From positions 1 through 44,372 of the forward strand of contig CAYWKE010000004.1 of assembly GCA_964459075.1 (NCBI GenBank): a stretch of DNA of 44,372 nucleotides, read 5' to 3'. Positions 4,198 to 39,982 of the stretch are shown here, piece by piece. The DNA is from an uncultured Candidatus Saccharibacteria bacterium (GTDB taxonomy: Bacteria > Patescibacteriota > Minisyncoccia > Phycocordibacterales > UBA12088). The notes under the pieces were generated by a model. The model saw only the letters and a program-made list of their open reading frames with translations. It ran no database searches and had not been told where the DNA came from. How positions within the stretch are numbered: the first letter of the stretch is position 1; each line of letters opens with the position of its first letter. The position numbers were made by a program, and so were the translations under genes.

Positions 4198-4812
4198 CTA
4201 CTTTCTTCCCTCAAGCGCACTCTTAATGGTCGCCGGATCGGCGTACTCAAGCTCTGAGCCGGTCGAGAGCCCGCGGCCAAGGGTGGTGATCTTGAAGCTG
4301 TGCTCGTTGGCAAGGGGCTCGAGGAACTCTCGCAAGAAGTATACGGTCTCGTCGCCATCGGGATTGACCGCGAACGCAAGGATGACCTCTTCAAGGTGCA
4401 CAGCACGCTCGGTCAGGAGCGCCCGCAGTTCGCGCATGCGCATGAAGGCCTCCGGGTCTTTCTTCAGTGGTGCGTAGAGTCCGCCGAGGACAAAGTAGCG
4501 CCCCGCAACCACGTGGCTCTTTTCGATGCTCTCAAGGTCAACATCTTTCTCGACGATGATGAGGTGGTGGTCGGAGCGATTGGGGTCAGCACACAGCGCG
4601 CAGCGAGTCGCGCCCGAGGGGGGCGGGGTGAAGTGGCGTTGGCACGAAGGGCATACTGTCACGCTCTCCTTGACCCGCTCGATGGACTCGCTCAATTCTC
4701 GAACCCACTGCTTGTTCTGGCGCAGCACGTAGTAGACCATCCGACGTGCCTGGCGAGGCCCCACGCCGGGGAACTTGATGAAGTACTCGGCCAATCGGTC
4801 GATCTCACTCAT
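4198..4812 (-). CDS. recR: Recombination protein RecR
   Basis: HhH motif FPGVGPRQARR, C4 zinc finger CPSCQ...CALC, Toprim-like C-terminal half. Start at MSEIDRL. Confidence 0.92.
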   Translation of the reverse strand: MSEIDRLAEYFIKFPGVGPRQARRMVYYVLRQNKQWVRELSESIERVKESVTVCPSCQRHFTPPPSGATRCALCADPNRSDHHLIIVEKDVDLESIEKSHVVAGRYFVLGGLYAPLKKDPEAFMRMRELRALLTERAVHLEEVILAFAVNPDGDETVYFLREFLEPLANEHSFKITTLGRGLSTGSELEYADPATIKSALEGRK

Positions 4813-4838
4813 GGTGATACATCCTAGCACACTGCGTG

Positions 4839-10732: not shown

Positions 10733-11005
10733 CTACTCGACGTCGACAACCTTCTTCTTCATAGTCTTTCCATTGAAGTGGGTCTTGCGCTTCTCGCGGA
10801 AGGAAATCGTACCTTCGGATGTTGCAAAGAGCGTGTAATCCTTACCGGCGCGTACGTTCTTGCCCGGGAGGATCTTAGAACCGCGCTGGCGCACGATGAC
10901 CGAGCCCGCTTGCGCTTTCTGGCCTGCGTAGAGCTTGGTGCCGAGATATTTCGGATTCGAGTTGCGGAGATTTTTCGCGGTTCCACCCGCTTTTCTTGTT
11001 GCCAT
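10733..11005 (-). CDS. rpmA: 50S ribosomal protein L27
   Basis: MATRKAGGTAKNLRNSNPKYLGTKLYAGQ... is canonical L27. Confidence 0.96.
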   Translation of the reverse strand: MATRKAGGTAKNLRNSNPKYLGTKLYAGQKAQAGSVIVRQRGSKILPGKNVRAGKDYTLFATSEGTISFREKRKTHFNGKTMKKKVVDVE

Positions 11006-11062
11006 AGGTGATTCGTGTTGCTATTCCTTGCGTTTATGGCCCACCGGCCCGAAAATTGAGGT

Positions 11063-13893: not shown

Positions 13894-13895
13894 TT

Positions 13896-13904
13896 TGCTA
13901 CACT
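13896..13904 (+). promoter_or_regulatory. Extended -10 (TGcTACACT) 7 nt upstream of the zwf ATG
   Basis: TTGCTACACTAGAGCCT then ATG at 13912. Confidence 0.45.
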
Positions 13905-13911
13905 AGAGCCT

Positions 13912-15309
13912 ATGACCCCAGAACAGAACACGCCCCTGTCCATCATCATCTTCGGCGCAACGGGGGACCTCGCCAAGAAGAAGCTCCTGCCCGCTCTGCT
14001 GGATCTCTCGTGCGCCGGGTTGCTTCCTACGCGCGTGCGTATTGTGGGGTTCTCGCGGCAGGATATGACCGACGAGGCGTTTCGTGCATTCGTCAAAGAC
14101 GCAATTGATGCTAGAGCACATGAACACCCACGCGAGAAGGTTGATGCGTACCTGCGCTCGATCACCTACTGTAGTGGCGATTTTACGCAGGAGGAGAGCT
14201 ACCACAAACTTGAGGACTACCTCGAGCACCTCGATGCGACCAATGGCCTGTGTACCAATAAGCTGCTCTACCTGTCAGTCCCGCCGACGCTCTACGAAAC
14301 CATATTTGAGCATGTCGCTGCGTCAGGTCTTGAAAAGAATTGTGGCGATCTGAATTGGGTGCGCATTGCCGTTGAGAAGCCCTTTGGGCGAGACAGTGAG
14401 ACGGCGCGCAAGCTCGACGAGAAGCTCGCATCACTCTTCTCAGAGGAGCAGATATTCCGCATCGATCACTACCTTGCGAAGGAGGCGCTGCAGAACATCC
14501 TTACCTTCCGCTTTAGCAACGTACTCTTTGAGCCAGTGTGGAATCGGGAATATATCGATCGTATTGAGATCGATTTCCATGAGAACTTCGGGGTGGGAAC
14601 GCGGGGTGCCTTCTACGAGGACATCGGCGCGCTGCGTGACGTGGGCCAAAACCACGTCCTGCAGATGCTTGCTTTGGTCGCACTCGAGAATCCGGGAGCG
14701 TTTACGGCCGAGGCAATTCGTACTGCACGAGAGGAGGTCCTCTCACGCCTGCGCTTGGCAGCAGAGCGTGAGATACGCAAGGGTCAGTATCGTTCGTACC
14801 ATGAAGAAGGTTCGGTAGCGGAAAATTCATCCACCGAAACCTACTTTCAGCTCACTCTTGGGATGGATTCAGAACGCTGGCGCGGAGTGCCGTTTGTTCT
14901 TTCGGGCGGCAAGATGCTCGGTGAGGATAGGATCGAGATACGCGTGTACTTCCGTGAGTCAGCAACATGCGTCTGTCACAATGAAGCGGAGCTGGGCACG
15001 CGAGGGAATGTGTTACGCTTCACGATGCGACCCACGGAGGAGATCGGGGTCACGCTTTGGGCCAAGCAGCGAGGCTTTTCGATGGACATTGAGGAGCAGC
15101 AAGTCATCATTCAGTATAAAGAGACCACGGGGCGCACACGTGACGCGTACGAGAAGATCCTCCTCGATGTGATCCGCGGTGACCAGACCCTGTTCACGAC
15201 GAGTCGCGAGGTTGCGGCTTCGTGGGGTCTCATTACCCCGATCATCGAAGGTTGGCACGGACAGAAGCCCTTCATCTACGACGATGGGTGGGTGCCGGAG
15301 CGTGGCTAG
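13912..15309 (+). CDS. zwf: Glucose-6-phosphate 1-dehydrogenase
   Basis: NADP motif FGATGDLAKKKL and active-site RIDHYLAKE. Confidence 0.95.
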   Translation: MTPEQNTPLSIIIFGATGDLAKKKLLPALLDLSCAGLLPTRVRIVGFSRQDMTDEAFRAFVKDAIDARAHEHPREKVDAYLRSITYCSGDFTQEESYHKLEDYLEHLDATNGLCTNKLLYLSVPPTLYETIFEHVAASGLEKNCGDLNWVRIAVEKPFGRDSETARKLDEKLASLFSEEQIFRIDHYLAKEALQNILTFRFSNVLFEPVWNREYIDRIEIDFHENFGVGTRGAFYEDIGALRDVGQNHVLQMLALVALENPGAFTAEAIRTAREEVLSRLRLAAEREIRKGQYRSYHEEGSVAENSSTETYFQLTLGMDSERWRGVPFVLSGGKMLGEDRIEIRVYFRESATCVCHNEAELGTRGNVLRFTMRPTEEIGVTLWAKQRGFSMDIEEQQVIIQYKETTGRTRDAYEKILLDVIRGDQTLFTTSREVAASWGLITPIIEGWHGQKPFIYDDGWVPERG

Positions 15310-15377
15310 TTGCGTGAAGTGAGACGGCATGGTCTACTTTTCGGCAGACCAATCACCGGACAGAAAGGAATCTCCCG

Positions 15378-16280
15378 ATGGGTGTCGGACTCGACTACCA
15401 CCTTGCTCCCATGAACACAGCGAAACTGACTCGCATCTACGGGCCTGGTAGCGAACGTTTTGTGCAGAGCGATCTTGCTCGCTCGCGGCTCGCACAAATT
15501 CTTTTCTCGGCCCAAGCAGCCGCAGAGAGCTACTGTATTGGGCGTCATTCGGGGTGGGAATTGTTGTGGCGTAGGGTGTTGCGAGAGACGCACAGGTGTG
15601 TCGCAGGAGCCAGGGGCCTCGATCACCTTCTACCACGTATCGAAGAAGCTTTGACCGCGCTCGATGCCATTGACATAGGCTCCTGTCTGTACGAAGAGAC
15701 GGTACCTGCTCTTGAGGGTATGGTGTCCTGCGTTGGTCCTGGCAACGTACTCCTGTTCACCCAGGGCTGCCCGCGACATCAACTGTCCAAAGTACAAGGA
15801 AGCGACGTTCTTGGGATCATTGGCCGCAGCGAAAGCGAGTTCGATACTATCGGCGGGGACAAGTATCTAACACTCTGCAGGATCAATGCAGCCGTGTCTG
15901 GGCGCACGCTCTTTATCGTTGACGATTCTCCGTCTGTGCACGAGAAGGTAGCTGCAGCGCTTCCCCCAGAAGCGCATTGGCTGTCGTTGTGTGTGCGTAC
16001 TGGTCATCAACGGGGAATAGATGGACCTATGCTTGGTGGCTCTTCGCGGGTGCTTGATTCCGTGAGGCGCCGTCTTGATTCGATGAATATTTCGCAAGAA
16101 GAATACGCTCCCCGCATCACGCTCTCGCACGCCCAAGCTGTTCTGTCGTGGCTGAGTGAGATGAGAAGGAATCCCCGGGTCCTACTTGATTGCGACGGTA
16201 CGCTTTGGAACAACGGAAGGATGCGTGTGTTGCAGGCCGAGGCACTCCTTCCGTTCATCATTCGCGCGATCAGAGTGTGA
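15378..16280 (+). CDS. Hypothetical protein with HAD-superfamily-like motifs in unusual order
   Basis: 300-aa ORF, last gene of the zwf unit. Contains VLLFTQG (motif II-like), GGDKYL (K) and LFIVDDSPSV (motif IV-like). A DxDGT motif-I-like VLLDCDGTLWN sits only 30 aa from the C-terminus. Confidence 0.55.
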   Translation: MGVGLDYHLAPMNTAKLTRIYGPGSERFVQSDLARSRLAQILFSAQAAAESYCIGRHSGWELLWRRVLRETHRCVAGARGLDHLLPRIEEALTALDAIDIGSCLYEETVPALEGMVSCVGPGNVLLFTQGCPRHQLSKVQGSDVLGIIGRSESEFDTIGGDKYLTLCRINAAVSGRTLFIVDDSPSVHEKVAAALPPEAHWLSLCVRTGHQRGIDGPMLGGSSRVLDSVRRRLDSMNISQEEYAPRITLSHAQAVLSWLSEMRRNPRVLLDCDGTLWNNGRMRVLQAEALLPFIIRAIRV

Positions 16281-16286
16281 TCGCTT

Positions 16287-16330
16287 GCGGCGAGTTCCCC
16301 CTTTCGGGTGAACTCGCCGCGCTTGTTTTT
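16287..16330 (+). terminator. Rho-independent terminator after the zwf unit
   Basis: GCGGCGAGTTC / GAACTCGCCGC 11-bp stem (further CCC/GGG pairs inside) followed by GCTTGTTTTT. Confidence 0.8.
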
Positions 16331-16338
16331 GGTATAGT
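16330..16338 (+). promoter_or_regulatory. Extended -10 (TGgTATAGT) upstream of gnd
   Basis: TGGTATAGT lies directly after the terminator U-tract; the ATG is at 16372, giving a leader of roughly 27 nt. Confidence 0.45.
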
Positions 16339-16371
16339 GGAAGGGTACTCGTCTAATACTAATACAGTTTT

Positions 16372-17271
16372 ATGCGCATAGGATTCATCGGACTCGGACG
16401 CATGGGAGCGAACATGGTGGCGCTTCTGCTTGAGAAGGGGCACGAAGTGGTCGCGTTTGATATCAACCTAGAGGCAGTTGAGGAAGCGAAGGGAAGAGGG
16501 GCGACGGGTGCTAGCTCGATCGCTGGGGTGGTCGAACACTTGGAAACACCGCGAACCGTCTTTGTCATGGTGCAGCGAAAGCACGTGCAGGGCGTCATCG
16601 ATGAGCTCTCGCCACTCCTTTCAGAAGGGGACACGATCGTTGATAGCGGCAACACATTCTACAAAGAGACACTTGAGCGTGTCGCGGCAGCAAAAGAGCA
16701 GGGACTCAACTTCATCGATGTGGGCGTCTCAGGTGGCACTGAGCGGGCGCGTACGGGAGCGACGTTGATGGTCGGGGGGCCAAAAGAGGTGGTCGCTCAC
16801 CTTGAGCCTGTCTTTCGCGACCTAGCGCAAGACGGCGGCTATGGCCACATGGGTGAGAGCGGCGCAGGGCATTTTGTAAAGATGGTTCACAACGGCATTG
16901 AGTATGGCATGATGCAGGCCATCGGCGAGGGTATGCAAGCCATTGATGAAGCGAAGGCGCAGTTTGGGACCGACCTGGGGATCGTGCTCAGGGTCTACAA
17001 TCACGGCTCCATTGTGGAGAGTTCACTCGTGGCGTGGAGCTTGCGTGCGTGGGAAAAGGACCCGGGCCTCAGCGAGATAGAGGGTTCGGTTCCCACAGGT
17101 GACACCGAGGCCGAAATGGAATCACTGAATGAACTAGCGCACATGCCGGCATTGGATGTGGCGCTCGCAGAGCGCAAGAAGAGCCGCGCGCATCCTTCGT
17201 TCTCAGGCAAGTTCGTCGCCGCGATGCGCAACGAGTTCGGTAGCCATACCGTGAACAAAAAACAGAGCTAG
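16372..17271 (+). CDS. gnd: 6-phosphogluconate dehydrogenase, short (~300 aa) form
   Basis: Rossmann start MRIGFIGLGRMGANM; GAGHFVKMVHNGIEYGMMQAIGEG. Confidence 0.9.
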   Translation: MRIGFIGLGRMGANMVALLLEKGHEVVAFDINLEAVEEAKGRGATGASSIAGVVEHLETPRTVFVMVQRKHVQGVIDELSPLLSEGDTIVDSGNTFYKETLERVAAAKEQGLNFIDVGVSGGTERARTGATLMVGGPKEVVAHLEPVFRDLAQDGGYGHMGESGAGHFVKMVHNGIEYGMMQAIGEGMQAIDEAKAQFGTDLGIVLRVYNHGSIVESSLVAWSLRAWEKDPGLSEIEGSVPTGDTEAEMESLNELAHMPALDVALAERKKSRAHPSFSGKFVAAMRNEFGSHTVNKKQS

Positions 17272-17274
17272 GAC

Positions 17275-17982
17275 ATGGCAGTCATCTGGCACCACGAAGA
17301 AGATATCGGTGTGCGTGCGGCACGGTGCCTCGCTGAGACACTCCGCACACATGCAGAAGAGGGAACACCCGTGCTCTTGCTCCTCTCGGGTGGTTCGTGG
17401 TTCTCGATCATTGACCCGGTGCGCGTGCCTGAAGGATGCGACCTCACGATTGGCATGCTCGATGAGCGATTCAGTGAGGATGGCTCGTTCAACAACTTCG
17501 CCCAACTATCGGAAACTCACTTTTTCAAGGCACTGCCAGAGCGGGTCGCGCTTCTCGACTCGCGCGTGCACACCGGAGAGACCCGAGCTGCGCACGCGTC
17601 GCGATTTGAACAGGGAATAAGCGACTGGTGTGATGCTCACCCCGAAGGGATCATCGTTGTCACCATGGGACTTGGTGTGGATGGACACACAGCAGGCGTG
17701 CTGCCGGGCGTGTACGATGAACAGACGTTCACAGAGCTCTTCCTTGAGACTGATGTGTGGGTGCGCGACTACTCCGTTCCTCCTGAGGTGAATGAGCACA
17801 CACAGCGGGTGACGGTCACGCTTGCATTCCTGCGCGAGCACGTCGATCACGCCATCCTCTTTGCGCGAGGCAAAGCACAGCAGGTCGCTGCACTCAAGGC
17901 GCGTGAGCGGCGTGTGCATGAGGTGCCCGGACTCATCGTGCACGAGATGCAGCTCGTGGATATCTTCGCAGAGGGTGCGTGA
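17275..17982 (+). CDS. pgl: 6-phosphogluconolactonase
   Basis: LLLSGGS, GMLDERF and GLGVDGHTAG motifs of the SugarP_isomerase/6PGL family. Confidence 0.87.
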   Translation: MAVIWHHEEDIGVRAARCLAETLRTHAEEGTPVLLLLSGGSWFSIIDPVRVPEGCDLTIGMLDERFSEDGSFNNFAQLSETHFFKALPERVALLDSRVHTGETRAAHASRFEQGISDWCDAHPEGIIVVTMGLGVDGHTAGVLPGVYDEQTFTELFLETDVWVRDYSVPPEVNEHTQRVTVTLAFLREHVDHAILFARGKAQQVAALKARERRVHEVPGLIVHEMQLVDIFAEGA

Positions 17983-17988
17983 TATACT
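17980..17988 (+). promoter_or_regulatory. Extended -10 (TGaTATACT) inside the pgl 3' end, 8 nt upstream of the LOG-family ATG
   Basis: GTGATATACTTAGAGCAA then ATG at 17997. Confidence 0.4.
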
Positions 17989-17996
17989 TAGAGCAA

Positions 17997-18728
17997 ATGT
18001 CGCAAGTTCCAAAACGGCACGACCCGAACGACGAGTACGTCCGTGCGTACCGCAAACACTGTCGAGTCGAGAGTGACCTGCTTGACGGTGTAGAGACCGA
18101 CACGATCTCATCGTGGCGTATCTTTAAGATCATTTCGGAGTTCGTGCAAGGGTTCGAACTGTTGCGGAAATACGGTCTTGCGGCAAGCATCTTCGGCTCG
18201 GCGCGCTCTACGCCCGACATGCCGATCTACCACGACGCCGAGAAACTTGGAGGGTACTTAGCACGCGAGGGTTTTGTCGTAATGACCGGTGGCGGTGGAG
18301 GCATCATGGAGGCGGCGAACAAGGGAGCGTTCGAGGCGGGAGGTGCCTCGGTGGGACTCAACATCCGGCTCCCCGACGAACAGGCACTCAACCCGTTCGT
18401 CACTGATGCGGCGACCTTCCACTACTTCTTCACACGCAAGGTCTCACTCGCATTTGCAAGCGAGGTCTACATCTACTACCCGGGTGGATTTGGAACACTC
18501 GATGAGATGTTCGAGATACTCACCCTCGTGCAGACCGGTAAGATCAAGCGTATCCCGATCGTTCTCGTTGGACGCTCCTACTGGGAGCCCTTGGTCTCGT
18601 GGTTTCGGCAAACGCTTCTAATCGAGCGACACACCATTCGGCAAGAGGACCTCGAGCTTTTCCACGTGGTCGACAATGCTGACGAAGCGCTCGATTTGAT
18701 CAAGCGCATGGTTGATTTTGACCGTTAG
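17997..18728 (+). CDS. LOG-family (TIGR00730-type) nucleotide phosphoribohydrolase
   Basis: GGGGGIMEAANKGA and PGGFGTLDE signatures. ATG 17997 is preferred to GTG 17979. Confidence 0.87.
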   Translation: MSQVPKRHDPNDEYVRAYRKHCRVESDLLDGVETDTISSWRIFKIISEFVQGFELLRKYGLAASIFGSARSTPDMPIYHDAEKLGGYLAREGFVVMTGGGGGIMEAANKGAFEAGGASVGLNIRLPDEQALNPFVTDAATFHYFFTRKVSLAFASEVYIYYPGGFGTLDEMFEILTLVQTGKIKRIPIVLVGRSYWEPLVSWFRQTLLIERHTIRQEDLELFHVVDNADEALDLIKRMVDFDR

Positions 18729-18731
18729 CGT

Positions 18732-20045
18732 ATGTGCCTACTTCGCTACAACGATTCCATTCGCCTAAGCGCCGGTACGTTCGAGGAGCATACTGAGCAC
18801 CTTGAGGGCTACCGCGAACGAATGGCGCGCGTGGTGGCAGAGCAGGAGTGGCACGCGCCTCAGGCGTCACTCTTGGCACCCAGCGACGATGTTGCCGCGC
18901 AGGGGACGTACGCTGTTGCTGATGCGCTGAAGCACGATGCACTCGAGCATGTCTTCCTGGCGGGTATTGGTGGCTCAAACCTCGGCACCAAGGCGATTCT
19001 CGATGCGCTCGGTCACCACTACGCGACCCTGGCCACACTTAGGCCTCACGTGCACTTCCTCGATACGACCGACCCCAGTTTGCTCGCTCACGCGCGTACA
19101 CGCATCGCAGCACTACCAGCACCCGAATCGGTCGCGGTCATTATCATCAGCAAGTCGGGCGGAACGACCGAGACCCTCTTCAATGCTGAGGTGGTCCTTG
19201 CAGCGCTTCGGGAACGGTTCGGTGAGGCGGCCACTACGCGTGTTGCTGTGGTGAGTGAGCCAGACAGTGCACTATCGCGTGAGGCTCGTGAGCGGGGCTT
19301 CCATACCGTCGCACACCCACCTGAGATCGGTGGCCGCTACTCGGTCTTCACGGCGGTCGGGCTCCTCCCCTTGGCACTGGTCGGTATTGACGTGGAAGCG
19401 TTGAGGGCGGGTGCTCGCGAGGCTCGTGCTCGCGGTCTTGAGGATTCCGACCGCAATGACGCGCGGGCTTCGGCGGTATGTCTCTTTGCGCACTACGACC
19501 GCGGTCTTTCCATTCACGACACATTCGTCTTTGCTCCGCAGCTCCACTCACTCGGTCTCTGGTACCGTCAATTGATGGGGGAGAGTGTTGGAAAAGAGTG
19601 CGATCGCGAAGGTGTAGTGGTACACGCAGGGATGACGCCAACGGTCTCCGTAGGCTCGACCGACCTGCACAGCGTGGGGCAGCTCTACCTGGCAGGCCCG
19701 CGTGACAAGGTCACGACCTTCGTGAGCATTGCGGCGCCGCGCGATACGGTCTCGACCCCAGAGGAACGCGTGTTCCCGAGCCTGGTCCCCATGATCAACG
19801 GTCACGATGCGGCCGAGGTGACACGCGCCATTCTTGAGGGAACGAAAGCGGCATACCGCGCTCACGAGCGGCCGTACATGGAGCTCATCGTTCCACAGCT
19901 TGATGCCCATTCGCTGGGTCAGGTCCTGCAACTGAAGATGCTCGAGATGATGTACCTCGCAGAGTTGATGCAGGTCAACGCATTCGACCAGCCGAACGTC
20001 GAGAGTTACAAGGTCGAGACGAAACGATCACTTGAGGGAGCGTAG
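18732..20045 (+). CDS. pgi: Glucose-6-phosphate isomerase (short bacterial/archaeal type)
   Basis: GIGGSNLG and ISKSGGTTET SIS motifs; 437 aa. Confidence 0.92.
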   Translation: MCLLRYNDSIRLSAGTFEEHTEHLEGYRERMARVVAEQEWHAPQASLLAPSDDVAAQGTYAVADALKHDALEHVFLAGIGGSNLGTKAILDALGHHYATLATLRPHVHFLDTTDPSLLAHARTRIAALPAPESVAVIIISKSGGTTETLFNAEVVLAALRERFGEAATTRVAVVSEPDSALSREARERGFHTVAHPPEIGGRYSVFTAVGLLPLALVGIDVEALRAGAREARARGLEDSDRNDARASAVCLFAHYDRGLSIHDTFVFAPQLHSLGLWYRQLMGESVGKECDREGVVVHAGMTPTVSVGSTDLHSVGQLYLAGPRDKVTTFVSIAAPRDTVSTPEERVFPSLVPMINGHDAAEVTRAILEGTKAAYRAHERPYMELIVPQLDAHSLGQVLQLKMLEMMYLAELMQVNAFDQPNVESYKVETKRSLEGA

Positions 20046-20046
20046 C

Positions 20047-20571
20047 ATGGCACAGCTGTACCCGAAAATCACGGTGTCAGATGAGCACGACGACAATCCA
20101 CAGTTCGTTGAGTTCTTTGATGCTCTCGAGAAGGGACTGATACGACGGGTTTCGCGCGTATTCATTCAGGATGGGGATGGGCGCATTTTCCTCCAGCGGC
20201 GTGGACCGGACCTTGAGATTCTTCCTTCGCACTGGGACATCTCTGCAGGTGGGCACGTTGATGAGGGGGACACATATTTCACGGCGGTTCGCACAGAAGT
20301 GCGCGAGGAACTCGGTCTTGTTGGACTCTCGTACGTCACACTTGGAAAGTGGTTTGTTGAGGAGTCTCGCAATGGGCAGGCTACTCCGGCGTGGCACATG
20401 CTCTACCGAGCAACGTGGAGCGGCTCCCCGCTGGTGCTTGCCGAAGGAGAGGTCGCTGAAGGGAAGTGGTTCACGCGGGAAGCCGTAGACAAATTGTGCG
20501 ACGCTACAGACGAGCTGGTCGCACCGACCTTGATAGCCAACTGGCGCGACTGTCGGGCTATGCTATCCTAG
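20047..20571 (+). CDS. NUDIX hydrolase
   Basis: Nudix box GGHVDEGDTYFTAVRTEVREELGL. The ATG lies 1 nt after the pgi stop. Confidence 0.88.
   Translation: MAQLYPKITVSDEHDDNPQFVEFFDALEKGLIRRVSRVFIQDGDGRIFLQRRGPDLEILPSHWDISAGGHVDEGDTYFTAVRTEVREELGLVGLSYVTLGKWFVEESRNGQATPAWHMLYRATWSGSPLVLAEGEVAEGKWFTREAVDKLCDATDELVAPTLIANWRDCRAMLS
20561..20569 (+). promoter_or_regulatory. Extended -10 (TGcTATCCT) 9 nt upstream of the ROK-kinase ATG
   Basis: ATGCTATCCTAGAGCGCAT then ATG at 20579. Confidence 0.4.
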
Positions 20572-20578
20572 AGCGCAT

Positions 20579-21424
20579 ATGTATCTACTCTTTGATATTG
20601 GAGGCACGAAAACCCGTATCGCGCTCTCAGAGGATGGTGAGCACATAGGCGAAGAGGTGAAGTTCGAGACCCCGCATGAGTTTGAACCTGGGATAGCACG
20701 CGTGGTCAGTGAAGCCAAACAGTTGACCAACGGAGCGCCACTCACAGCGATCGCAGGGGGTGCCTCAGGTCCTTTGTCGCGCGAGAAGGATCGCTTCGTC
20801 AATGCACCGAATCTGCCGCTATGGAATCACCAGCCGCTGGCTGCGCGTCTCTCTGAGGAGCTAGGCGCACCGGTGTACATGGAGAACGATTCCGCGATCG
20901 TGGGTTTGGGTGAAGCCCATTTCGGAGCGGGGCAGGGGTTTGGTATTGTCATGTACCTTACCATCTCTACGGGAGTTGGTGGTGCACGCATCGTCGACGG
21001 ACGGATCGATAGGAGCGCGTTCGGGTTCGAGCCAGGACATCAGATCATCGACATAGACAAGACCCTATGTACCGAGTGCGTGAGTGGTGAGGCGGAGGAC
21101 ACGATCTCCGGCACCGCGACCGCCCACCGCTACGGCAAGAAGGCGTACGAGGTTACCGAGCCCAATGCCTGGGAGGAACTAGCGCACTGGAGCGCAGTTG
21201 TTGTCAACAACAGCGTCCTACACTGGTCACCCGACGTCGTCGTGTTGGGGGGCTCAATGATCGTCGGGGATCCCGCGATACCCATTGAGCGTATCAAAGC
21301 TCACATCGACCGTATCCTGACCATCTTCCCCGAAAAGCCCATTCTCAAAAAAGCGGAGTTACGTGATGTGGGCGGTCTCTACGGAGCGCTGGTTTATGCT
21401 AAACAAAACCACATAACAGAGTAG
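20579..21424 (+). CDS. ROK/BadF-type sugar kinase (probable glucokinase)
   Basis: N-terminal phosphate-1 motif LFDIGGTKTRIAL and actin-fold ATPase layout. The genomic context is pgi and the pentose-phosphate genes. Confidence 0.78.
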   Translation: MYLLFDIGGTKTRIALSEDGEHIGEEVKFETPHEFEPGIARVVSEAKQLTNGAPLTAIAGGASGPLSREKDRFVNAPNLPLWNHQPLAARLSEELGAPVYMENDSAIVGLGEAHFGAGQGFGIVMYLTISTGVGGARIVDGRIDRSAFGFEPGHQIIDIDKTLCTECVSGEAEDTISGTATAHRYGKKAYEVTEPNAWEELAHWSAVVVNNSVLHWSPDVVVLGGSMIVGDPAIPIERIKAHIDRILTIFPEKPILKKAELRDVGGLYGALVYAKQNHITE

Positions 21425-23015: not shown

Positions 23016-23987
23016 TCATTCGTCGTTGTGTGACCCACTATGAAATCGCTCGTGAATATCACGGAGCTGTTTGTTGGTGACGTGCGTATATATCTGCGTG
23101 GTGGCCACGTTCTGGTGTCCGAGGAGTTCTTGCACACTACGTAGGTCGGCACCGTGTGAGAGGAGGTCGGTTGCGTACGTATGACGCAGCGTGTGCGGGG
23201 TCACCTTTTTACTCAGTCCGGCAAAGCGAGCGTAGCGAGCTATCATGAGCTGGATGGAACGGGGGGTGAGGCGACGTTCGCCCGGTTCGCGGGAGCGGTA
23301 GTTGATGAAGAGGGGTTTGAAGGTGTCACGCCGTTGTGAGAGGTATCGTCGAAGCCAGGTGGCGGCTCGCGGCGAGATGAAAATGGTACGCACTTTCTTA
23401 CCTTTACCCACAATGGACAGCTCGTAGGTGCGCGATTCGCTTCCATCGCGGAGCATGGAGAGTTGGTCGACGTTGAGCGCGGTCAACTCGGCGATGCGCA
23501 TGCCCGAAGAGAAAAAGAGCTCCATGATGGTGCGGTCGCGCAGACCCGATGGTGTGGACACGTCCGGCTGTTCGATCATGCGCTGTATGTCCGACAGCTC
23601 GAGGAACGATATGGTCTCCTCTGACTTCTGCTTCGCAAGCTTCACCTTGCTTGAAGGGAGTGTCTCGATGTCGCGATCGGCAAGAAAGTCCAAGAGTGAG
23701 CGCAAAGCGATGAGGTAGTAATTCTGAGACTTCTTTGAGAGGGAAGAGCAGCGCGTGGTCACGTAGCCACGTGCGAGGAAGAGCCGGTAATCCCAAATGT
23801 GCTGCGCGGTCAATTCGTGCGGCAGCAGGTCTCGCTGACCGATGCGCTCGAGCCAGTGGGTGAAGAGGGCGAGGTACTGCGCGTAGTTGCGTTGCGTGTT
23901 GCTTGAAAGTCCCTTCTCGATCTCGCAGTAGTCGAGGAAGGGGAGTACGTGTTCACGAAGAGGTGTGGTGCTTGTACCGGAAGGCAT
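23016..23987 (-). CDS. Tyrosine site-specific recombinase (XerC/XerD-like)
   Basis: N-terminal SAM-like core-binding domain (LSSNTQRNYAQYLALFTHWL). Catalytic residue contexts GMRIAEL, HTLRHTYATDLL and LGHQNVATTQIYTHV. Confidence 0.9.
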   Translation of the reverse strand: MPSGTSTTPLREHVLPFLDYCEIEKGLSSNTQRNYAQYLALFTHWLERIGQRDLLPHELTAQHIWDYRLFLARGYVTTRCSSLSKKSQNYYLIALRSLLDFLADRDIETLPSSKVKLAKQKSEETISFLELSDIQRMIEQPDVSTPSGLRDRTIMELFFSSGMRIAELTALNVDQLSMLRDGSESRTYELSIVGKGKKVRTIFISPRAATWLRRYLSQRRDTFKPLFINYRSREPGERRLTPRSIQLMIARYARFAGLSKKVTPHTLRHTYATDLLSHGADLRSVQELLGHQNVATTQIYTHVTNKQLRDIHERFHSGSHNDE

Positions 23988-23995
23988 TAAGGCCT

Positions 23996-24026
23996 AGTAT
24001 ACCGTATTGTGTTTATTCGCACAATA
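23996..24026 (-). promoter_or_regulatory. Putative recombinase promoter (-35 TTGTGC, 17 nt, -10 TATACT, 8 nt to ATG) overlapped by a 7-bp inverted repeat
   Basis: Minus strand reads TTGTGCGAATAAACACAATACGGTATACTAGGCCTTA then ATG. TATTGTG (24005-24011) and CACAATA (24020-24026) form a palindrome over the -35/spacer. Confidence 0.4.
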
Positions 24027-24031
24027 TATGT

Positions 24032-24195
24032 AAAACGAACCAAAGCCATACGCTTTGCGTTCGTTTTACATAACGCAGATTTTGCGAATATACGTATTCG
24101 CAAGAATCTGCTCAAAACGAACCAAAGCCATACGCTTTGCGTTCGTTTTACATAACGCAGATTTTGCGAATATACGTATTCGCAAGAATCTGCTC
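24032..24195. repeat. Two perfect tandem copies of an 82-bp unit, each unit holding two long near-perfect palindromes; partial third start (AGAACGAA) at 24196
   Basis: 24032-24113 is identical to 24114-24195 by direct comparison. Palindrome A is TAAAACGAACCAAAGC catac GCTTTGCGTTCGTTTTA. Palindrome B is GCAGATTTTGCGAAT atacgt ATTCGCAAGAATCTGC. Confidence 0.95.
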
Positions 24196-24227
24196 AGAAC
24201 GAATAACCCTCACCTTTGCTCGATTCA

Positions 24228-24850
24228 CTAAGCCTGTTCTAAACAAAGCTCCAGGATCGCTTCTGTGGACCGTTCGTTCGATACCTGGTATGCAGTACCA
24301 CCTCGCTGCCGGAACACAGCACACGCGTTTTGAAAATCATCGATCAAGATGCTTGCTTAGATCGAATGCTCCCAGTTCTTCACATACATCAACAAAGAGC
24401 TGGCCGTCATCATCGGTCTTGTACCGACCTGAGTCTGCTGAATTCTAGAGGCGAGTGAAGTAGCGATCTAGGCCAAGTGCGGTCCAGGTCCAGCGCGTGA
24501 TCGTGTCGCTGTTCGTGGTAATGAGCATCGTGTGGAAGCGTACACGCAGCTTCCCCACTCTCGTGAAGAACTCTTCCCTGATTGACATTGTGCGACATTT
24601 AGCTTGAGTTTTCTTTTCAAGAAGAGTGGATCGTATCCCAGCTCACGACCCAACGCTTCACATACTTCCTCTGCGCTCGTGCGTCCTCGCATCCATGCTG
24701 CTGTGTTGCTGTTGCCAAACAGTCTCTCTTGGAGGCTTTCGTACACGTCTGTTGGGAGGTCACTCCAAACCGCTCAAAGCAGATGGTTCCATCGAAATCG
24801 ATGAACAGAATGCGTTCTCGATGCTCCCCTCCCTGTTCCGGCACGAGCAT
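24228..24850 (-). pseudogene. Degraded HAD-superfamily hydrolase gene (at least 3 frameshifts and 1 in-frame TAG)
   Basis: Hand translation of the minus strand finds the HAD motifs in order but in different frames. These are ILFIDFDGTICF (motif I), then WSDLPTDVYESLQERLF..., then VRFHTMLITTNSD...LGLDRYFTRL-TAG(24445-24447)-NSADSGRYKTDDDGQLFVDVCEELG, then SILIDDFQNACAVF (motif IV). One shift falls at an A-run near 24606-24618. Confidence 0.75.
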
Positions 24851-24876
24851 GATCTAACGTCGCACAATAAACTAGG

Positions 24877-25134
24877 CTAGTTTTCCTTTGGCTCATCCAG
24901 ATGCCTCGTGAAGTGCTGCTTCAGTGTCCCGTCGATCGTCTTTTGAAAATTGATGGCATGCTGGGGGGTGAGGACGATCTCTGAGACGAGCTGCGCCTGG
25001 TCAGTATTAGGTCGTACAAAGAGGAACTGCAGCACGACCGCATCATCTGATACGTTGAGGTGCACGGAGTTCGCAAACGTAGGCTGGTGCTCTCTACTCA
25101 TCTGCACGTTGAGTTGCTTTTTGTTCTGTTCCAT
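24877..25134 (-). CDS. DUF3467-family small protein
   Basis: 85 aa. The pattern FANSVHLNVSDDAVVLQFLFVRP....QLVSEIVLTPQHAINFQKTI matches my recollection of the DUF3467 consensus (YAN......S..EF.LDF....P......V.SR...TP.HAK.L...L). Confidence 0.7.
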   Translation of the reverse strand: MEQNKKQLNVQMSREHQPTFANSVHLNVSDDAVVLQFLFVRPNTDQAQLVSEIVLTPQHAINFQKTIDGTLKQHFTRHLDEPKEN

Positions 25135-36390: not shown

Positions 36391-37722
36391 CTACTCCGGC
36401 TTACTGAGCCTTGTATCAATACGATTGATATCGCGCGGGAAGAGAGTTGCTTCTTTGACACTCTCAAGACCCAGGAACTTCTGGGTGAGTCGCTCAAGAC
36501 CCATACCCCAGCCGCCGTGCGGGGGCATGCCAAACTTGAAGGCTTGGAGGTAAAACTGGAAGTTCTCAGGATCGAGCCCCTTCTCTTTGAGTCGCGTGAG
36601 GTACTGATCGTACTCATGCACACGTTTTCCTCCCGTCGTAATTTCAACGCCACGGAAGAGGAGATCGAACGAGAGTGTGTGGTCGGGATCTTCCGGATCG
36701 ACGAAGGTGTAGAAAGGACGCTTCTTCGTTGGGTAGTGGGTGATGAAGATAAAATCGCTCCCCAACTCGCGCTTGGCGTAGTCGCACAGCCAGCGCTCGT
36801 GGGCGGGCTCAAGATCTGGTTCCTCGGTGCAGTCCTCGCCTGTCTCTTTTGTGATGAGACGTTGTGCGTCCCGGAATTTCATGCGAGGGAAGGAGTCGGG
36901 TGTCATGGGAAGCTCGGCGCCAAGTGTGGCGAATTCAGCTTCAGACGTCGAGCGGAGACGTGTGACGATCGTCTGCAGTGTCTGCTCGAGAACCGCCATG
37001 ATGTCCTCGTGGCTTTCGATAAATCCCATCTCGGCATCGATGGAGGTGTACTCGTTGAGGTGCCGTGTGGTGGCATGGAGCTCAGCGCGGAAAACGTTCC
37101 CGGTGGTGAAGACGCGCTCGAAGGCTCCCACCATGATCTGCTTGTAGAGCTGTGGGCTCGTGGCGAGGTACGCATCCTGGTTTTTGAGATACTCAACCCG
37201 AAAGACGTTCCCGCCACCCTCGGCATCGTCCCCCACGATCTTAGGTGCCTGAATCTCGGTGAAATCCTGGGCGTACAGCCCGTCGCGGTAGCCGCGAATG
37301 ATCTCGCTCTGCACTTTGAAGATTGCGTGTTCGCGCTTCCTCTTGTGTGTGAAGGGGCGGTAGTCGAGGTTGGTGTCGATGTTGATGTCAGCGTTGAGAT
37401 CGAAGGGCAACTCCTGAGCTCGTGAGAGTATCTCGATTCTGGTGATCTCAAGCTCGATGTCGCCGTTTTGAACGCCTTCCTTGCGCATCTTCTCGGGCCG
37501 CTCGTTGACAATGCCTGTGACATTGACGACCCATTCAGGCCGCAAGGTCTTGGCTACTTCCAAGACCTCGGGCTTGCCGAAGACGACGCCCTGGATGAAG
37601 CCAGAGCGGTCGCGGAAGTCGAAGAAGGCCATTTTTCCCTGATCGCGCGCGGTGTCGACCCACGCGCCGATCATGACCTCCTCTCCCTTGTGTGAACTGA
37701 GCTGTGCGATGAGTGTACGCAT
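36391..37722 (-). CDS. aspS: Aspartate--tRNA ligase, archaeal/eukaryal-type (short, ~440 aa)
   Basis: N-terminal OB fold. Class II motifs FRAE, QLYKQ and GGWGMGLERL. It lacks the bacterial-type insertion domain, judged by length. Confidence 0.92.
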   Translation of the reverse strand: MRTLIAQLSSHKGEEVMIGAWVDTARDQGKMAFFDFRDRSGFIQGVVFGKPEVLEVAKTLRPEWVVNVTGIVNERPEKMRKEGVQNGDIELEITRIEILSRAQELPFDLNADINIDTNLDYRPFTHKRKREHAIFKVQSEIIRGYRDGLYAQDFTEIQAPKIVGDDAEGGGNVFRVEYLKNQDAYLATSPQLYKQIMVGAFERVFTTGNVFRAELHATTRHLNEYTSIDAEMGFIESHEDIMAVLEQTLQTIVTRLRSTSEAEFATLGAELPMTPDSFPRMKFRDAQRLITKETGEDCTEEPDLEPAHERWLCDYAKRELGSDFIFITHYPTKKRPFYTFVDPEDPDHTLSFDLLFRGVEITTGGKRVHEYDQYLTRLKEKGLDPENFQFYLQAFKFGMPPHGGWGMGLERLTQKFLGLESVKEATLFPRDINRIDTRLSKPE

Positions 37723-37734
37723 ATTCTAGTTTGT

Positions 37735-37769
37735 TAGGCGCTAGGCTTTAGGCACTAGGCATTAGGTTT
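37735..37769. repeat. Five tandem heptamers TAGGCNN spanning the S51-peptidase stop and the spacer before aspS
   Basis: TAGGCGC TAGGCTT TAGGCAC TAGGCAT TAGGTTT, read directly. Confidence 0.9.
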
Positions 37770-38423
37770 GTTAAACGAATCTACCGTCCCTTCGCCGACA
37801 ACTTCGACCTCGCCATCGACGACTGCGAGTGCGGAGGTGTCGTCGACCGCGTAGAAGGTCTCTTGTATCGAGCCGGCAATGTCCTCCATAACGCCCTTAC
37901 GGGCGTTCGGGAAGTCATGTGAGTTGTAGTGGGGGCGGAAGTGAAAAGGGACGAAGTTGAGGGCGGGTTTGCCTGCGTAGCTCTTGTCTTCATAGTACAT
38001 GTCAATATCTTCTGAGGAAACGAAGGTCGTGGGGCCGGTCACAATCGAGCCCGCACTGATGCCGGCGTAGACACGGGTCTCAAGAAGTCGTGGCAGCTCT
38101 GTATCAAGCCCAGCTTCGCGCATGTGGTCAATGAGGTGGTGCGTATCGCCGCCTGAGAAAAAGAGTACATCAGCCGCTTCGAAGCGCGGGAGCCACTCCT
38201 CTTTTTTGAGCGCAGAGAAATCGACAACGTCAAACTGCTTGAGGCCCTGCGCGTGAATGCGCCAGATATCGTTCACGAACCAGGTCTTGTTCCCCTCGGT
38301 CGGGTTCATTGCGGTCGGGACGAATGTGATTGTGGTCTCGCTTGCGGGTTTTTCGACGAGCGCAAAGAGCTTCGCTGCAATACTCTCAGTCGAGAGGCCG
38401 TTTGAGGTGAGAAGTAATTTCAT
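37755..38423 (-). CDS. Peptidase S51 family protein (dipeptidase E-like)
   Basis: LLLTSNG start, FSGGDTHHL and nucleophile elbow YAGISAGS, as in PepE/cyanophycinase-type class-I amidotransferase-fold peptidases. Confidence 0.83.
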   Translation of the reverse strand: MKLLLTSNGLSTESIAAKLFALVEKPASETTITFVPTAMNPTEGNKTWFVNDIWRIHAQGLKQFDVVDFSALKKEEWLPRFEAADVLFFSGGDTHHLIDHMREAGLDTELPRLLETRVYAGISAGSIVTGPTTFVSSEDIDMYYEDKSYAGKPALNFVPFHFRPHYNSHDFPNARKGVMEDIAGSIQETFYAVDDTSALAVVDGEVEVVGEGTVDSFNKPNA

Positions 38424-38441
38424 ACAAGTGAATTAGACACG

Positions 38442-38526
38442 AAAATCGCCCCTTCGAACTCATCTGCCCGTGCTCATATCCGGAGGTTTCACCTCTGGAC
38501 AAAGCTGATGAATTCGCAGGGGCGAT
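38442..38526 (-). terminator. T-box terminator: long interrupted hairpin followed by a U-tract
   Basis: Minus strand: AUCGCCCCU (38526-38518) pairs with AGGGGCGAU (38453-38445). GAAUUCAUC (38515-38507) pairs with GAUGAGUUC (38464-38456), including a U-G wobble. An inner hairpin is capped by GAAA. UUUUC follows. Confidence 0.75.
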
Positions 38527-38800
38527 CTCAAGTGTGCGGGTTATTCTGCCCTACTTGGCCGCGGTGCCACCCTGGTTTGTTGCTTCATTCTTGCGCTGTG
38601 TCGGGCGCGCCCGGAGGGGTCTACTGGTCTGCCCCAAAACACATGTGGCAAACGTTCTTCCCTCGTCCTCGTCGGTGTCAGCCGGGTCGGGGGACGTAGG
38701 TATGACCATAAAACAAAGTTGTCTTCTCTGCAAGTCCTGACGACGTTAACCGGCGCTTGCGCGCCGGTTATCTCGTTCATCCCCAAGGTTCTTCACCGCG
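38442..38800 (-). promoter_or_regulatory. T-box riboswitch leader (probable tRNA-Asp specificity) controlling the S51-peptidase/aspS operon; 5' boundary uncertain
   Basis: AGGGUGGCACCGCG (38573-38560) matches the conserved T-box sequence. Antiterminator helices A1 (CAGGG/CCCUG) and A2 (GCG/CGC) flank a 7-nt UGGCACC bulge. The competing terminator shares the CGCCCCU segment. GAA-GAC-A at 38726-38720 is a Specifier-like string. Confidence 0.75.
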
Positions 38801-38939
38801 GGCAGCCTGGTCGCCGACAAGCTTCCCGTCGAATAGAATTGTTCCGACGCTTCCCAAGCATGGCACTAACCATGGCCAAGACCACAGTACAGCCACCACG
38901 ATGGGGAGAGTTGTGCTAAGCAACAACGTTTTTGCACTC

Positions 38940-38945
38940 ATTATA
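38940..38945 (-). promoter_or_regulatory. Perfect TATAAT hexamer that could start the long leader transcript
   Basis: Minus strand reads GGAATAATATAATGAGTGC. No convincing -35. Confidence 0.3.
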
Positions 38946-39025
38946 TTATTCCTCCCAATTCTCAGCGTCTGTGATGCTTCGCAGACGGTTCCTGGTGGCC
39001 AGTGTGCAATCTCGATCGTAACTTG

Positions 39026-39982
39026 TCAACCAATATTCACCCCAAGCCGCTCTTTCACCAGTGCTATCTTTTCTAAGGCTAGATTCCTGGCCTTTTCGCT
39101 CCCTTCCTCGATGACCTGCAGGACCTCGGTATCGGTGATACTGTTGCGACGTTCGCGCATCGGGCCGAAGTAGGCTTCGATATCTTCGATGAGGGCTTCT
39201 TTGAGGGCTTTGTACTTCCCTTCGTGCTCCTGGTAGAGGGGTTCGAGCTCGGCTTCGCTTTTGAGGAGTTTGTGAATGGCGTAGACGTTCTCAGGGCGGG
39301 TGCCGGAGGAGTCGGTGACAATGCTCATGACCGCTTTGGCGATGATGTCCTTCGGGGCGAACAAAGGAATGGTGTTCTTGTAGCTCTTGCTCATTTTCTG
39401 GCCGTCGGTCCCGGGTACAACGCCCACGCCCTCGATGATCTTCTCCTGGGGCATGTTAAATGTCCCGCCGTAGGCTTGGTTGAACTTGGTTGCGGCCTCG
39501 CGCGTATACTCCACGTGCTGCTTTTGGTCGTGGCCCACGGGCACAATGTCGGTGTCGTACAGCAGAATGTCCGCCGCCATGAGCATGGGGTAGTTGAAAA
39601 GGCCTGCGGTGGGCTCGATGCCCTTGGCGATCTTGTCTTTGTATGAGTGAGCCTGCATCAAGAACGGCACCGTGACGAGACACTCGAATATCCACGCGAG
39701 CTCGGTGTGCTCGGGGACGCGTGACTGCTGAAAGATGATGGCTTTCTCAGGGTCCACGCCAGTCGCAAGGTAGTCCTTCACAACTTCAGGGATGTTACGA
39801 CGTAGGACCTCCGGGTCGCGCACGGTGGTGAGCGCGTGGTAGTCGACGACCATGAGAAAGCTCTCGTATTCCTCGTAGAGGTCCACGAATGGCTTCAGGG
39901 CGCCGAAGTAGTTACCGATGTGGAGTTGCTCACCCGAAGGTTGGAGACCCGTGAGGAGGCGCTGTTTGAGAGTATCCCTCAT
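39026..39982 (-). CDS. trpS: Tryptophan--tRNA ligase
   Basis: LTGLQPSGEQLHIGNY (HIGH) and KMSKS motifs; 318 aa. Confidence 0.95.
   Translation of the reverse strand: MRDTLKQRLLTGLQPSGEQLHIGNYFGALKPFVDLYEEYESFLMVVDYHALTTVRDPEVLRRNIPEVVKDYLATGVDPEKAIIFQQSRVPEHTELAWIFECLVTVPFLMQAHSYKDKIAKGIEPTAGLFNYPMLMAADILLYDTDIVPVGHDQKQHVEYTREAATKFNQAYGGTFNMPQEKIIEGVGVVPGTDGQKMSKSYKNTIPLFAPKDIIAKAVMSIVTDSSGTRPENVYAIHKLLKSEAELEPLYQEHEGKYKALKEALIEDIEAYFGPMRERRNSITDTEVLQVIEEGSEKARNLALEKIALVKERLGVNIG

Follow-up and report, generated by a model that had tools for sequence, protein, structure and literature searches.

T-box riboswitches in which an ultrashort Stem I carries the Specifier in its apical loop have been described as translational ileS leaders, "mostly identified in Actinobacteria" (PMC7583486), and for two of them, the ileS T-boxes of M. 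tuberculosis and N. farcinica, structures in complex with tRNA are available (PDB 6UFG and 6UFM, as cited in PMC7583486). For transcriptional T-boxes, the current view is that a long Stem I is needed to capture the tRNA fast enough, and Stem III has been described as indispensable (PMC7583486). The short-Stem-I model of the T-box database TBDB was run only in Actinobacteria and on RF00230 hits with a truncated Stem I (PMC7778990). The subject of this report is a leader on the minus strand of a 44,372-nt stretch of DNA (here called the window: contig CAYWKE010000004.1, positions 1 to 44,372, of assembly GCA_964459075.1) from an uncultured Candidatus Saccharibacteria bacterium. Lying upstream of an operon of an S51-family peptidase gene and aspS, this leader is very probably a tRNA-Asp-sensing T-box riboswitch that acts by transcription attenuation. 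It is most likely a real tRNA-sensing T-box in a stripped-down form, with no long elbow-binding arm and yet ending in a terminator.

About 38698-38442, minus strand: T-box leader element with its own promoter upstream; the modules, from 5' to 3', are K-turn, ultrashort Stem I, Stem II (with S-turn), IIA/B pseudoknot, T-box antiterminator and competing terminator

Seven leader copies have been compared: those of the window, L081, L084, L209, L211 (identical in L212 and L213), L216 and L217. The six further copies, all diverged, were obtained from the contigs of closer relatives of the aspartyl-tRNA synthetase (AspRS) and of the S51 peptidase; they belong to Patescibacteria (Paceibacteria-like), and every one of them lies upstream of aspS or of an S51 peptidase-aspS pair. 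GCA_009908485.1 (L081) and GCA_007115985.1 are among the assemblies in which the leader occurs.

Comparison with described T-boxes

Like the actinobacterial ileS T-boxes of class II, the leader has a K-turn and a very short Stem I with the Specifier in its apical loop and no double T-loop platform, and it shares with them the S-turn in Stem II, the IIA/B pseudoknot, the T-box bulge, helices A1 and A2 and the insertions in A2. By the definition given in PMC7583486, it has the decoding features of the class II short-Stem-I elements but not their Shine-Dalgarno-occluding sequestrator. Unlike them, it ends in an intrinsic terminator where theirs end in a Shine-Dalgarno sequestrator, it goes with Asp (or Asn) and aspS rather than with Ile and ileS, it occurs in Patescibacteria rather than in Actinobacteria, and it is without Stem III in five of its seven copies.

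With the canonical transcriptional T-boxes (RF00230; B. subtilis tyrS and glyQS) it has in common the T-box sequence, the 7-nt UGGN bulge and the mutually exclusive antiterminator and terminator, as well as the K-turn, the Stem II S-turn, IIA/B with its F-box and, in L216 and L217, Stem III. It differs from them in that about 74 Stem I positions are gone (those of the internal Specifier loop and its S-turn, of the AG bulge and of the distal loop), that its RF00230 score is far below the gathering threshold, and that it is small: K-turn through antiterminator take up about 180 nt, with only about 120 nt between K-turn and T-box. In Clostridium acetobutylicum, a T-box with an Asn Specifier reportedly controls a non-discriminating AspRS/GatCAB operon, and this element (Saad et al. 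2012, J Biol Chem) is reported to be a Firmicutes T-box with a canonical long Stem I. The L084 copy resembles the reported C. acetobutylicum T-box in placing a non-discriminating AspRS under a T-box predicted to read tRNA-Asn; unlike it, most of the present copies would read Asp.

Judged by homology, the element belongs to the T-box superfamily. What is new is its variant features taken together: the decoding module is of the actinobacterial style but goes with an intrinsic terminator, the specificity is for Asp or Asn, Stem III has often been lost, and the host belongs to the candidate phyla radiation (CPR). As far as we have found, the combination of a Stem I without elbow arm and a transcription terminator has not been described before, and full-text searches of the literature gave no paper that links T-box riboswitches with Patescibacteria or the CPR. 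The balance tips slightly towards a wider reading, in which this is a naturally minimal transcription-terminating T-box that works without the tRNA-elbow platform and, mostly, without Stem III, is the first tRNA-sensing riboswitch family documented in the CPR, and has a Specifier that switched between an Asp and an Asn codon, matching a non-discriminating AspRS.

T-box regulation would then reach the Patescibacteria. These leaders would have escaped the TBDB pipeline, given that its search with the short-Stem-I model was confined to Actinobacteria and that RF00230 does not pick the family up. Since the leader joins a decoding module without elbow contact to a kinetically controlled terminator, a working example would test the long-Stem-I requirement directly; if the reading is true, parts deemed essential for co-transcriptional tRNA sensing are dispensable. 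The copies also offer a natural experiment on Stem III, which five of the seven have lost while keeping its purine flanks, and a leader of this size could provide structural studies and the engineering of tRNA sensors with a compact natural scaffold.

The antiterminator and the competing terminator

38517-38574, minus strand: T-box sequence and antiterminator (exact 14-mer, minimum free energy fold, covariation)
38442-38529, minus strand: intrinsic terminator (fold energy, U-run, covariation)

The T-box sequence, AGGGTGGCACCGCG (that is, AGGGUGGCACCGCG), lies at 38573-38560 on the minus strand. The preliminary description of this DNA had reported it as matching the consensus AGGGUGGNACCGCG / AGGGTGGNACCGCG at every fixed position, and it proves to be the sole zero-mismatch match in the window; with up to two mismatches allowed there are six matches, where 1.58 are expected. 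UGGNACCGCG and the AGGG before it are identical in all seven copies apart from the N. A second T-box-like site in the window, at 10976-10989 with one mismatch, was set aside as a chance match inside the rpmA coding sequence: the look-alike CGGGTGGAACCGCG, 13/14 to the consensus and of a kind that motif scans would flag, is part of the opening codons of the gene for ribosomal protein L27 (MATRKAGGTAKN...; 10759-11010, minus strand).

In the antiterminator, helix A1 pairs CAGGG with CCCUG (38574-38570 with 38521-38517) and helix A2 pairs GCGG... with ...UCGC (38562-38559 with 38525-38522), the apical part of A2 being extended. Between them lies the 7-nt bulge UGGCACC (38569-38563), whose UGGC is predicted to pair with the 3' GCCA of the tRNA. 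This is the structure that had been drawn previously (CAGGG, UGGCACC and GCG facing CGC-CCCUG, with a CAAGU/ACUUG extension), and with that extension it is the minimum free energy fold of 38580-38512. The bulged antiterminator is also the minimum free energy fold of its own segment in each of the seven copies, at -11 to -22 kcal/mol (about -17 in the window). A1 covaries (CAGGG/CCCUG versus UAGGG/CCCUA), as does the fourth pair of A2 (G.U, A-U, U-A). The G-C found in place of G.U at the base of A2 was dropped as a deviation, because 33 of 115 ordinary T-boxes have G-C there as well.

In the 5' strand of the terminator, AUCGCCCCU-G-CGAAUUCAUC..., the 3' strands of A2 and A1 are used a second time; the terminator's 3' strand ends in AGGGGCGAU (38453-38445), and the U-run occupies 38445-38442. 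The hairpin at 38529-38442, in which the previously noted wobble between U38512 and G38459 is present, has a fold energy of -50.2 kcal/mol (z = -6.8) and is followed by UUUU-C (38445-38441) and, 18 nt further on, by the ATG at 38423. The mutually exclusive hairpin that the preliminary description proposed as a terminator is thereby confirmed. All seven copies have an equivalent hairpin (-26 to -48 kcal/mol) followed by three to six U (five or six in L081, L084, L209 and L217), and in L083, a truncated contig, just the 3' half of the terminator is left, where the contig ends.

The same T-box might instead act on translation, in the manner of the actinobacterial ileS T-boxes with short Stem I, its 3' hairpin being a sequestrator that blocks ribosome binding. 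The set of ultrashort Stem I, Stem II S-turn and IIA/B has so far been tied to translational T-boxes, A2 insertions such as that in the window are said to be typical of these (PMC7583486), and the U-run of the window has only four U. A run of three to six U nevertheless stands directly 3' of the stem in every copy, and the distance from hairpin to start codon is variable (18 nt for the window copy, over 90 nt for that of L084), the start codon never being included in the hairpin. No Shine-Dalgarno sequence precedes the ATG at 38423, and six of the seven copies have no Shine-Dalgarno-like motif between U-run and start codon, the other, L211, having a single AGGA far upstream of its start. A hairpin that is followed by a U-run, at a variable distance upstream of the start codon and, in six of seven copies, without a Shine-Dalgarno-like sequence after it argues for transcription attenuation and not for Shine-Dalgarno sequestration, and action on translation is highly improbable.

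Stem I and the Specifier

38665-38695, minus strand: ultrashort Stem I on a K-turn (one scheme for all seven copies)

The K-turn consists of a C-stem GUCC/GGAC (38695-38692 with 38668-38665), a 3-nt bulge CCC (38691-38689), tandem G.A/A.G pairs (38688-38687 with 38670-38669) and a non-Watson-Crick C.C as the 3b.3n pair (38686 and 38671). On it stands the 4-bp Stem I helix CCGG/CCGA (38685-38682 with 38675-38672), with the apical loop CUGACA (38681-38676); within this loop GAC (38679-38677) is the Specifier, followed by the conserved 3' purine A38676. The pattern of C-stem, 3-nt bulge, GA...GA and non-Watson-Crick 3b.3n pair, as read from the sequence, fits 7/7 copies, and a kink is predicted from it. 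Across the copies Stem I has a helix of 3-4 bp and a loop of 6-7 nt. The C-stem covaries (GUCC/GGAC, GACC/GGUC, ACC/GGU), and so does the Stem I helix (CCGG/CCGG, ACAG/CUGU, GCGG/CCGC). The preliminary description had been unable to fold a canonical Stem I with K-turn and distal platform; the K-turn has now been found (38695-38687 with 38671-38665), while the distal platform is indeed absent.

The loop reads CU-NAC-A in all seven copies and is invariant save for the first codon base, which is G, or A in L084 only. The L084 Specifier is AAC (Asn), followed by A; a change from GAC to AAC would fit a non-discriminating AspRS that also charges tRNA-Asn. In every copy the Specifier matches the regulated aspS, has C at its third position and is followed by a purine (GAC-A; AAC-A in L084). 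An earlier assignment of the Specifier to GAA-GAC-A at 38726-38720 has been ruled out: that site lies in the promoter spacer, outside the conserved RNA, and in L081, a relative with 90% identity, unrelated sequence stands in its place. The Asp specificity that went with it stands, with the right codon at another site, GAC-A at 38679-38676.

Four overlapping triplets are contained in the loop, and a functional T-box could accordingly read another tRNA, either in another frame (CUG for Leu, ACA for Thr) or as tRNA-Asn in the window copy. tRNA-Asn is also a substrate of the enzyme and L084 presents AAC; G73, moreover, is common to bacterial tRNA-Asp, tRNA-Asn and tRNA-Trp. Both the purine-after-codon rule and the C rule (PMC7583486), however, hold for the frame GAC-A only, which alone matches the regulated synthetase and whose first base is the sole variable position of the loop, so that a different tRNA is hardly credible as the ligand. 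The predicted reading of tRNA-Asp is compatible with the one Patescibacteria tRNA-Asp(GUC) seen, in L018, a genome other than that of the window: it has G73, which suits UGGC, and no encoded CCA.

Stem II, the pseudoknot and the Stem III position

38614-38664, minus strand: Stem II (conserved motifs, covariation, RF00230 alignment in L217)
38593-38613, minus strand: Stem IIA/B pseudoknot (compensatory changes; IIA and F-box aligned by RF00230 in L217)
38575-38592, minus strand: purine-rich single-stranded linker AAGAAUGAAGCAACAAAC at the position of Stem III

The base helix of Stem II is GAGGG/CCCUC (38664-38660 with 38618-38614), replaced by GAGAG/CUCUC in L217. Above it come an S-turn-like internal loop, with GAA (38657-38655) opposite AGUA (38625-38622), and an upper helix GUUUGCC/GGCAGAC (38653-38647 with 38633-38627) with a variable apical loop. 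GAG(G/A)GAAGAA and GUAGA(A/C)C(C/U)CUC are kept in 7/7 copies; the sequences of the upper helix and loop are unrelated between copies and yet always pair, 4/4 sampled pairs being compensatory. L216 has an insertion of about 130 nt in the apical part of Stem II (2710-2840), with the S-turn and base helix unchanged.

In the pseudoknot, IIA is CGG/CCG (38613-38611 with 38604-38602) with the loop GCGCGC (38610-38605), from which GCGC (38608-38605) pairs with GCGC (38596-38593) to give IIB; CCGACA (38604-38599) corresponds to the F-box. The partners in IIB change together (GCGC:GCGC in the window, L081, L216 and L217; GGCU:AGCC in L084), and three of the four IIB pairs are compensatory. In L211, and identically in L212 and L213, about 50 nt are inserted in the IIA hairpin (1990-2070); the CAGA[GCGC]UCUG of this insertion could present the pseudoknot bases from an inner hairpin.

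Stem III of known T-boxes is flanked by 5'-RRRxG ... AA-3' (PMC7583486). It is kept with the correct flanks in L216 (AAGCG-[CUCAGUC...GACUGAG]-AA) and L217 (AAAGG-[GUUCUA...UAGAAC]-AA). In the window, GAAGC (38586-38582) and AA (38578-38577) of the linker resemble these flanks, and the linker may do Stem III's job.

The losses in Stem I and at the Stem III position would also be expected of a T-box descendant that no longer senses tRNA, its attenuator being constitutive or otherwise controlled, for example by a protein or by RNA polymerase pausing: the elbow platform is gone, Stem III is gone in 5/7 copies, and both have been called important or indispensable for tRNA binding by transcriptional T-boxes (PMC7583486). 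Conservation is nevertheless best, among otherwise rewritten helices, in just those parts that touch the tRNA, namely the CU-NAC-A loop, the S-turn purines, UGGNACC and the RRRxG...AA flanks, and the sole change in the loop is a meaningful one, from an Asp to an Asn codon. Conservation of the tRNA contacts together with a meaningful codon change therefore argues against a decaying relic, and such a loss of function is improbable.

Covariation and distribution of the leader

L081: leader of the relative with 90% S51 identity, order HK-trpS-Fic-leader-S51-aspS
L084: order leader-S51-aspS
L209: order leader-aspS, no peptidase gene
L211 (identical in L212 and L213): order leader-S51-aspS
L216 and L217: order leader-aspS-M17 peptidase

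The seven copies were aligned by hand, with padding, on the structure proposed here, and N was put in place of the variable apical inserts. For the tRNA-bound-state structure, 98.6% of the cells pair and 15 of the 33 pairs have changes on both sides; at least one double-changed pair occurs in each of the eight helices, pseudoknot included. In 500 shuffles the observed values were never reached, and with slid registers only 39-50% is paired. The terminator alignment has 91.4% of cells paired and 5/15 pairs compensatory. Because the main alignment was made by hand around the structure, MAFFT and RNAalifold were also run on unedited sequences; from five unedited copies they recover the C-stem, Stem I with a 6-nt loop, both parts of Stem II, IIA, A1 and A2, with 11/33 pairs compensatory. 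Alignment of the relatives' leaders, which the preliminary description had recommended, has thus yielded covariation in all eight helices, and the UGGN bulge is kept throughout.

Run in E-value mode, RF00230 gives a global alignment to the L217 copy over model positions 1-219, at 46.5 bits (E=1.8e-9). The alignment puts the K-turn, the Stem II GAA/AGUA, IIA and F-box (CCGUUA ~ CCGUCA), Stem III, T-box and antiterminator of the model on the modules annotated here, and 74 of its Stem I positions are replaced by 4 nt; L081 has a local match to the antiterminator only (14.1 bits). It is thus shown that the sequence elements are present, conserved and covarying, that two folds exclude each other, and that the leader is homologous to the T-box family. 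The original identification of a T-box riboswitch is borne out by the seven diverged copies, by covariation in every helix and by this global alignment to one copy, and the suspicion that it might be an atypical variant was justified, Stem I being without distal platform and the window copy without Stem III.

The leader has a scattered distribution. In the leaderless relatives L087, L210 and L214 trpS abuts aspS, and the contigs L083, L086 and L208 are too short upstream for comparison. In a neighbour-joining tree of AspRS, the leader-bearing genomes fall in at least three lineages and are interspersed with leaderless ones; the leader is therefore either old in the group, with several losses, or has moved between lineages. 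A blastn search of the leader against plasmids gave no match. Eighty S51 loci from GTDB species representatives (at most 62% identity) have no upstream T-box core, and a search of 127 kb of these loci with RF00230, at gathering score, gave no T-box. A pattern scan of metagenomes with CAGGGTGGNACCGCG-N(12-42)-CGYCCCTG matched at least 120 ordinary T-boxes; among the matches listed, none belonged to the leader's family by nhmmer profile and none had the short architecture by a crude regex screen.

A number of observations weigh against an attenuating tRNA-Asp sensor. RF00230 misses the whole window at gathering score, and at E<=10 it misses both 38350-39100 and the 291-nt element itself (38430-38720); the best score in the family, the 46.5 bits of L217, is half of the gathering score of 93. 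The preliminary description, which had proposed this search, would have taken the absence of an RF00230 hit as a refutation. That is too strict, since at gathering score the model also misses 6/7 ordinary UGGC T-box loci used as controls, and the miss in the window is therefore weak evidence against a T-box. Stem I is without AG bulge and distal loop, that is, without the elbow-binding double T-loop platform (IDTM), and there is no Stem III in the window, L081, L084, L209 and L211, where 0-4 nt lie between the flank-like purines; because both missing parts are called important for transcriptional T-boxes (PMC7583486), function is not to be assumed. The U-run of the window (UUUU-C) is short. 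The pseudoknot is weak in L209 (3/4 pairs), and L211 was left out of that comparison for its large insertion. The L211 bulge, moreover, is UGGU and not UGGC, though its Specifier is still GAC; one possibility is a U.G wobble with G73, another a different discriminator base. The tRNA-Asp gene of the window's genome does not lie in the window, and there is no tRNA gene in any of the leader-bearing loci. Finally, the copies number only seven, and their main alignment was built around the structure that it supports.

Promoter and proposed mode of action

38705-38733, minus strand: putative sigma-70-type promoter (-35 TTGCAG at 38733-38728, 17-nt spacer, -10 TATGGT at 38710-38705), recognized by reading the sequence

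Both promoter hexamers and their spacing are kept in L081 (TTGCAT-N17-TATGGT), while the spacer and all upstream sequence are unrelated; identity between the window and L081 sets in abruptly just 3' of the promoter. Comparable hexamers can be seen by eye in L209 (TTGCAA...TATAAT), L216 (TTGAAC...TACAAT) and L217. A consensus promoter scan made no call at 38733-38705.

From the known T-box mechanism we infer tRNA binding, sensing of aminoacylation, termination or read-through, and docking of the S-turn. Transcription would begin near 38698, and the nascent RNA would fold into the K-turn and the 4-bp Stem I, whose apical loop would present GAC-A. The Stem II S-turn would dock on the Stem I loop, placed there by the IIA/B pseudoknot, and the GUC anticodon of tRNA-Asp would pair with GAC at 38679-38677. 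If the tRNA is uncharged, its 3' GCCA would pair with UGGC at 38569-38566 and stabilise the weak antiterminator (about -17 kcal/mol); this would tie up CGCCCCUG (38524-38517), no terminator would form, and RNA polymerase would carry on through the peptidase gene and aspS. With a charged tRNA, or with none, the terminator, much the more stable fold at about -48 to -50 kcal/mol, would form and transcription would stop at the U-run, 38445-38442. An amino-acid-scavenging CPR cell would in this way raise AspRS, along with a peptidase possibly releasing aspartate, when charging of tRNA-Asp falls.

The putatively regulated operon and neighbouring genes

36391-38423, minus strand: regulated operon, S51-family peptidase and aspS
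38423-37755, minus strand: S51-family peptidase (Pfam PF03575)
37722-36391, minus strand: aspS, archaeal-type non-discriminating aspartate-tRNA(Asn) ligase (PF00152 and PF01336; NCBIfam NF003483, 502.7 bits, above cut-off)
39982-39026, minus strand: trpS, flanking the leader gap upstream

The identities and order of trpS, the S51 peptidase gene and aspS given in the preliminary description agree with their Pfam and NCBIfam domains. So does its placing of the DNA in a CPR-like genome agree with the homologues of the S51 peptidase and AspRS, which come from Patescibacteria (under such names as Paceibacterota, Yonathbacteria and Kaiserbacteria). Four aminoacyl-tRNA synthetase genes are present in the window (cysS, gltX, trpS and aspS), and such a leader is found at the aspS operon only. 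ARAGORN finds no tRNA gene in the 44-kb window, nor does any Rfam family match there at gathering score.

Solved relatives of the S51 peptidase include the aspartyl dipeptidase PepE, and a coupling of peptidase and AspRS under a sensor of tRNA-Asp charging would suit an amino-acid scavenger. The arrangement points to a reduced, auxotrophic CPR cell that still checks whether one of its tRNAs is charged and that ties AspRS to a peptidase. Among the relatives a peptidase gene recurs beside that of AspRS, S51 on its upstream side or M17 on its downstream side; a gene for an M17 (leucyl/PepA-type) aminopeptidase overlaps or directly follows aspS in many of them. It overlaps the aspS end in L216 (4337-5749) and L217 (4359-5792), and it is present also in L087, L210 and L214.

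The 600-nt gap between trpS and the S51 peptidase gene, earlier said to hold no credible open reading frame (ORF), does contain a putative one of 54 codons, at 38941-38777 on the minus strand between trpS and the T-box promoter, with the Shine-Dalgarno sequence GGGAGG about 8 nt before its ATG. The N-terminal half of the product, MSAKTLLLSTTLPIVVAVLWSWPWLVPCLGSVGTILFDGKLVGDQAARGEEPWG, is hydrophobic and its tail is charged; Pfam has no matches to this 54-aa product or to that of an 81-aa ORF in the gap. L081, the closest relative (GCA_009908485.1), is without the 54-codon ORF. A gene with Fic/Fic_N domains occupies that position, between trpS and the T-box promoter (4591-5682), and has an AT-rich upstream region unlike the DNA around it; the spot directly upstream of the leader looks like a gene-insertion hotspot. 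Just 3' of the small ORF in the window, a strong GC hairpin without U-run, AACCGGCGCGCAAGCGCCGGUU, lies at 38748-38769 on the minus strand (-26.1 kcal/mol and z = -5.6 for the 51 nt around it). The trpS transcript may end at this hairpin, whose match to the Rfam family Mcr7 (9.4 bits) is a weak one due to chance.

Elsewhere in the window, a tyrosine recombinase/integrase gene (23987-23016, minus strand) adjoins the only low-GC kilobase, 24001-25000 (GC 0.49, versus about 0.57 elsewhere), and the region 23016-25000 may be the edge of a mobile element. On the plus strand, 12061-21424 holds a sugar-metabolism cluster encoding a GH15 glucoamylase/trehalase-like protein, glucose-6-phosphate dehydrogenase, a 6-phosphogluconate-dehydrogenase-like protein, phosphoglucose isomerase and a ROK kinase, which makes the entry into the oxidative pentose-phosphate pathway fairly complete for a CPR genome.

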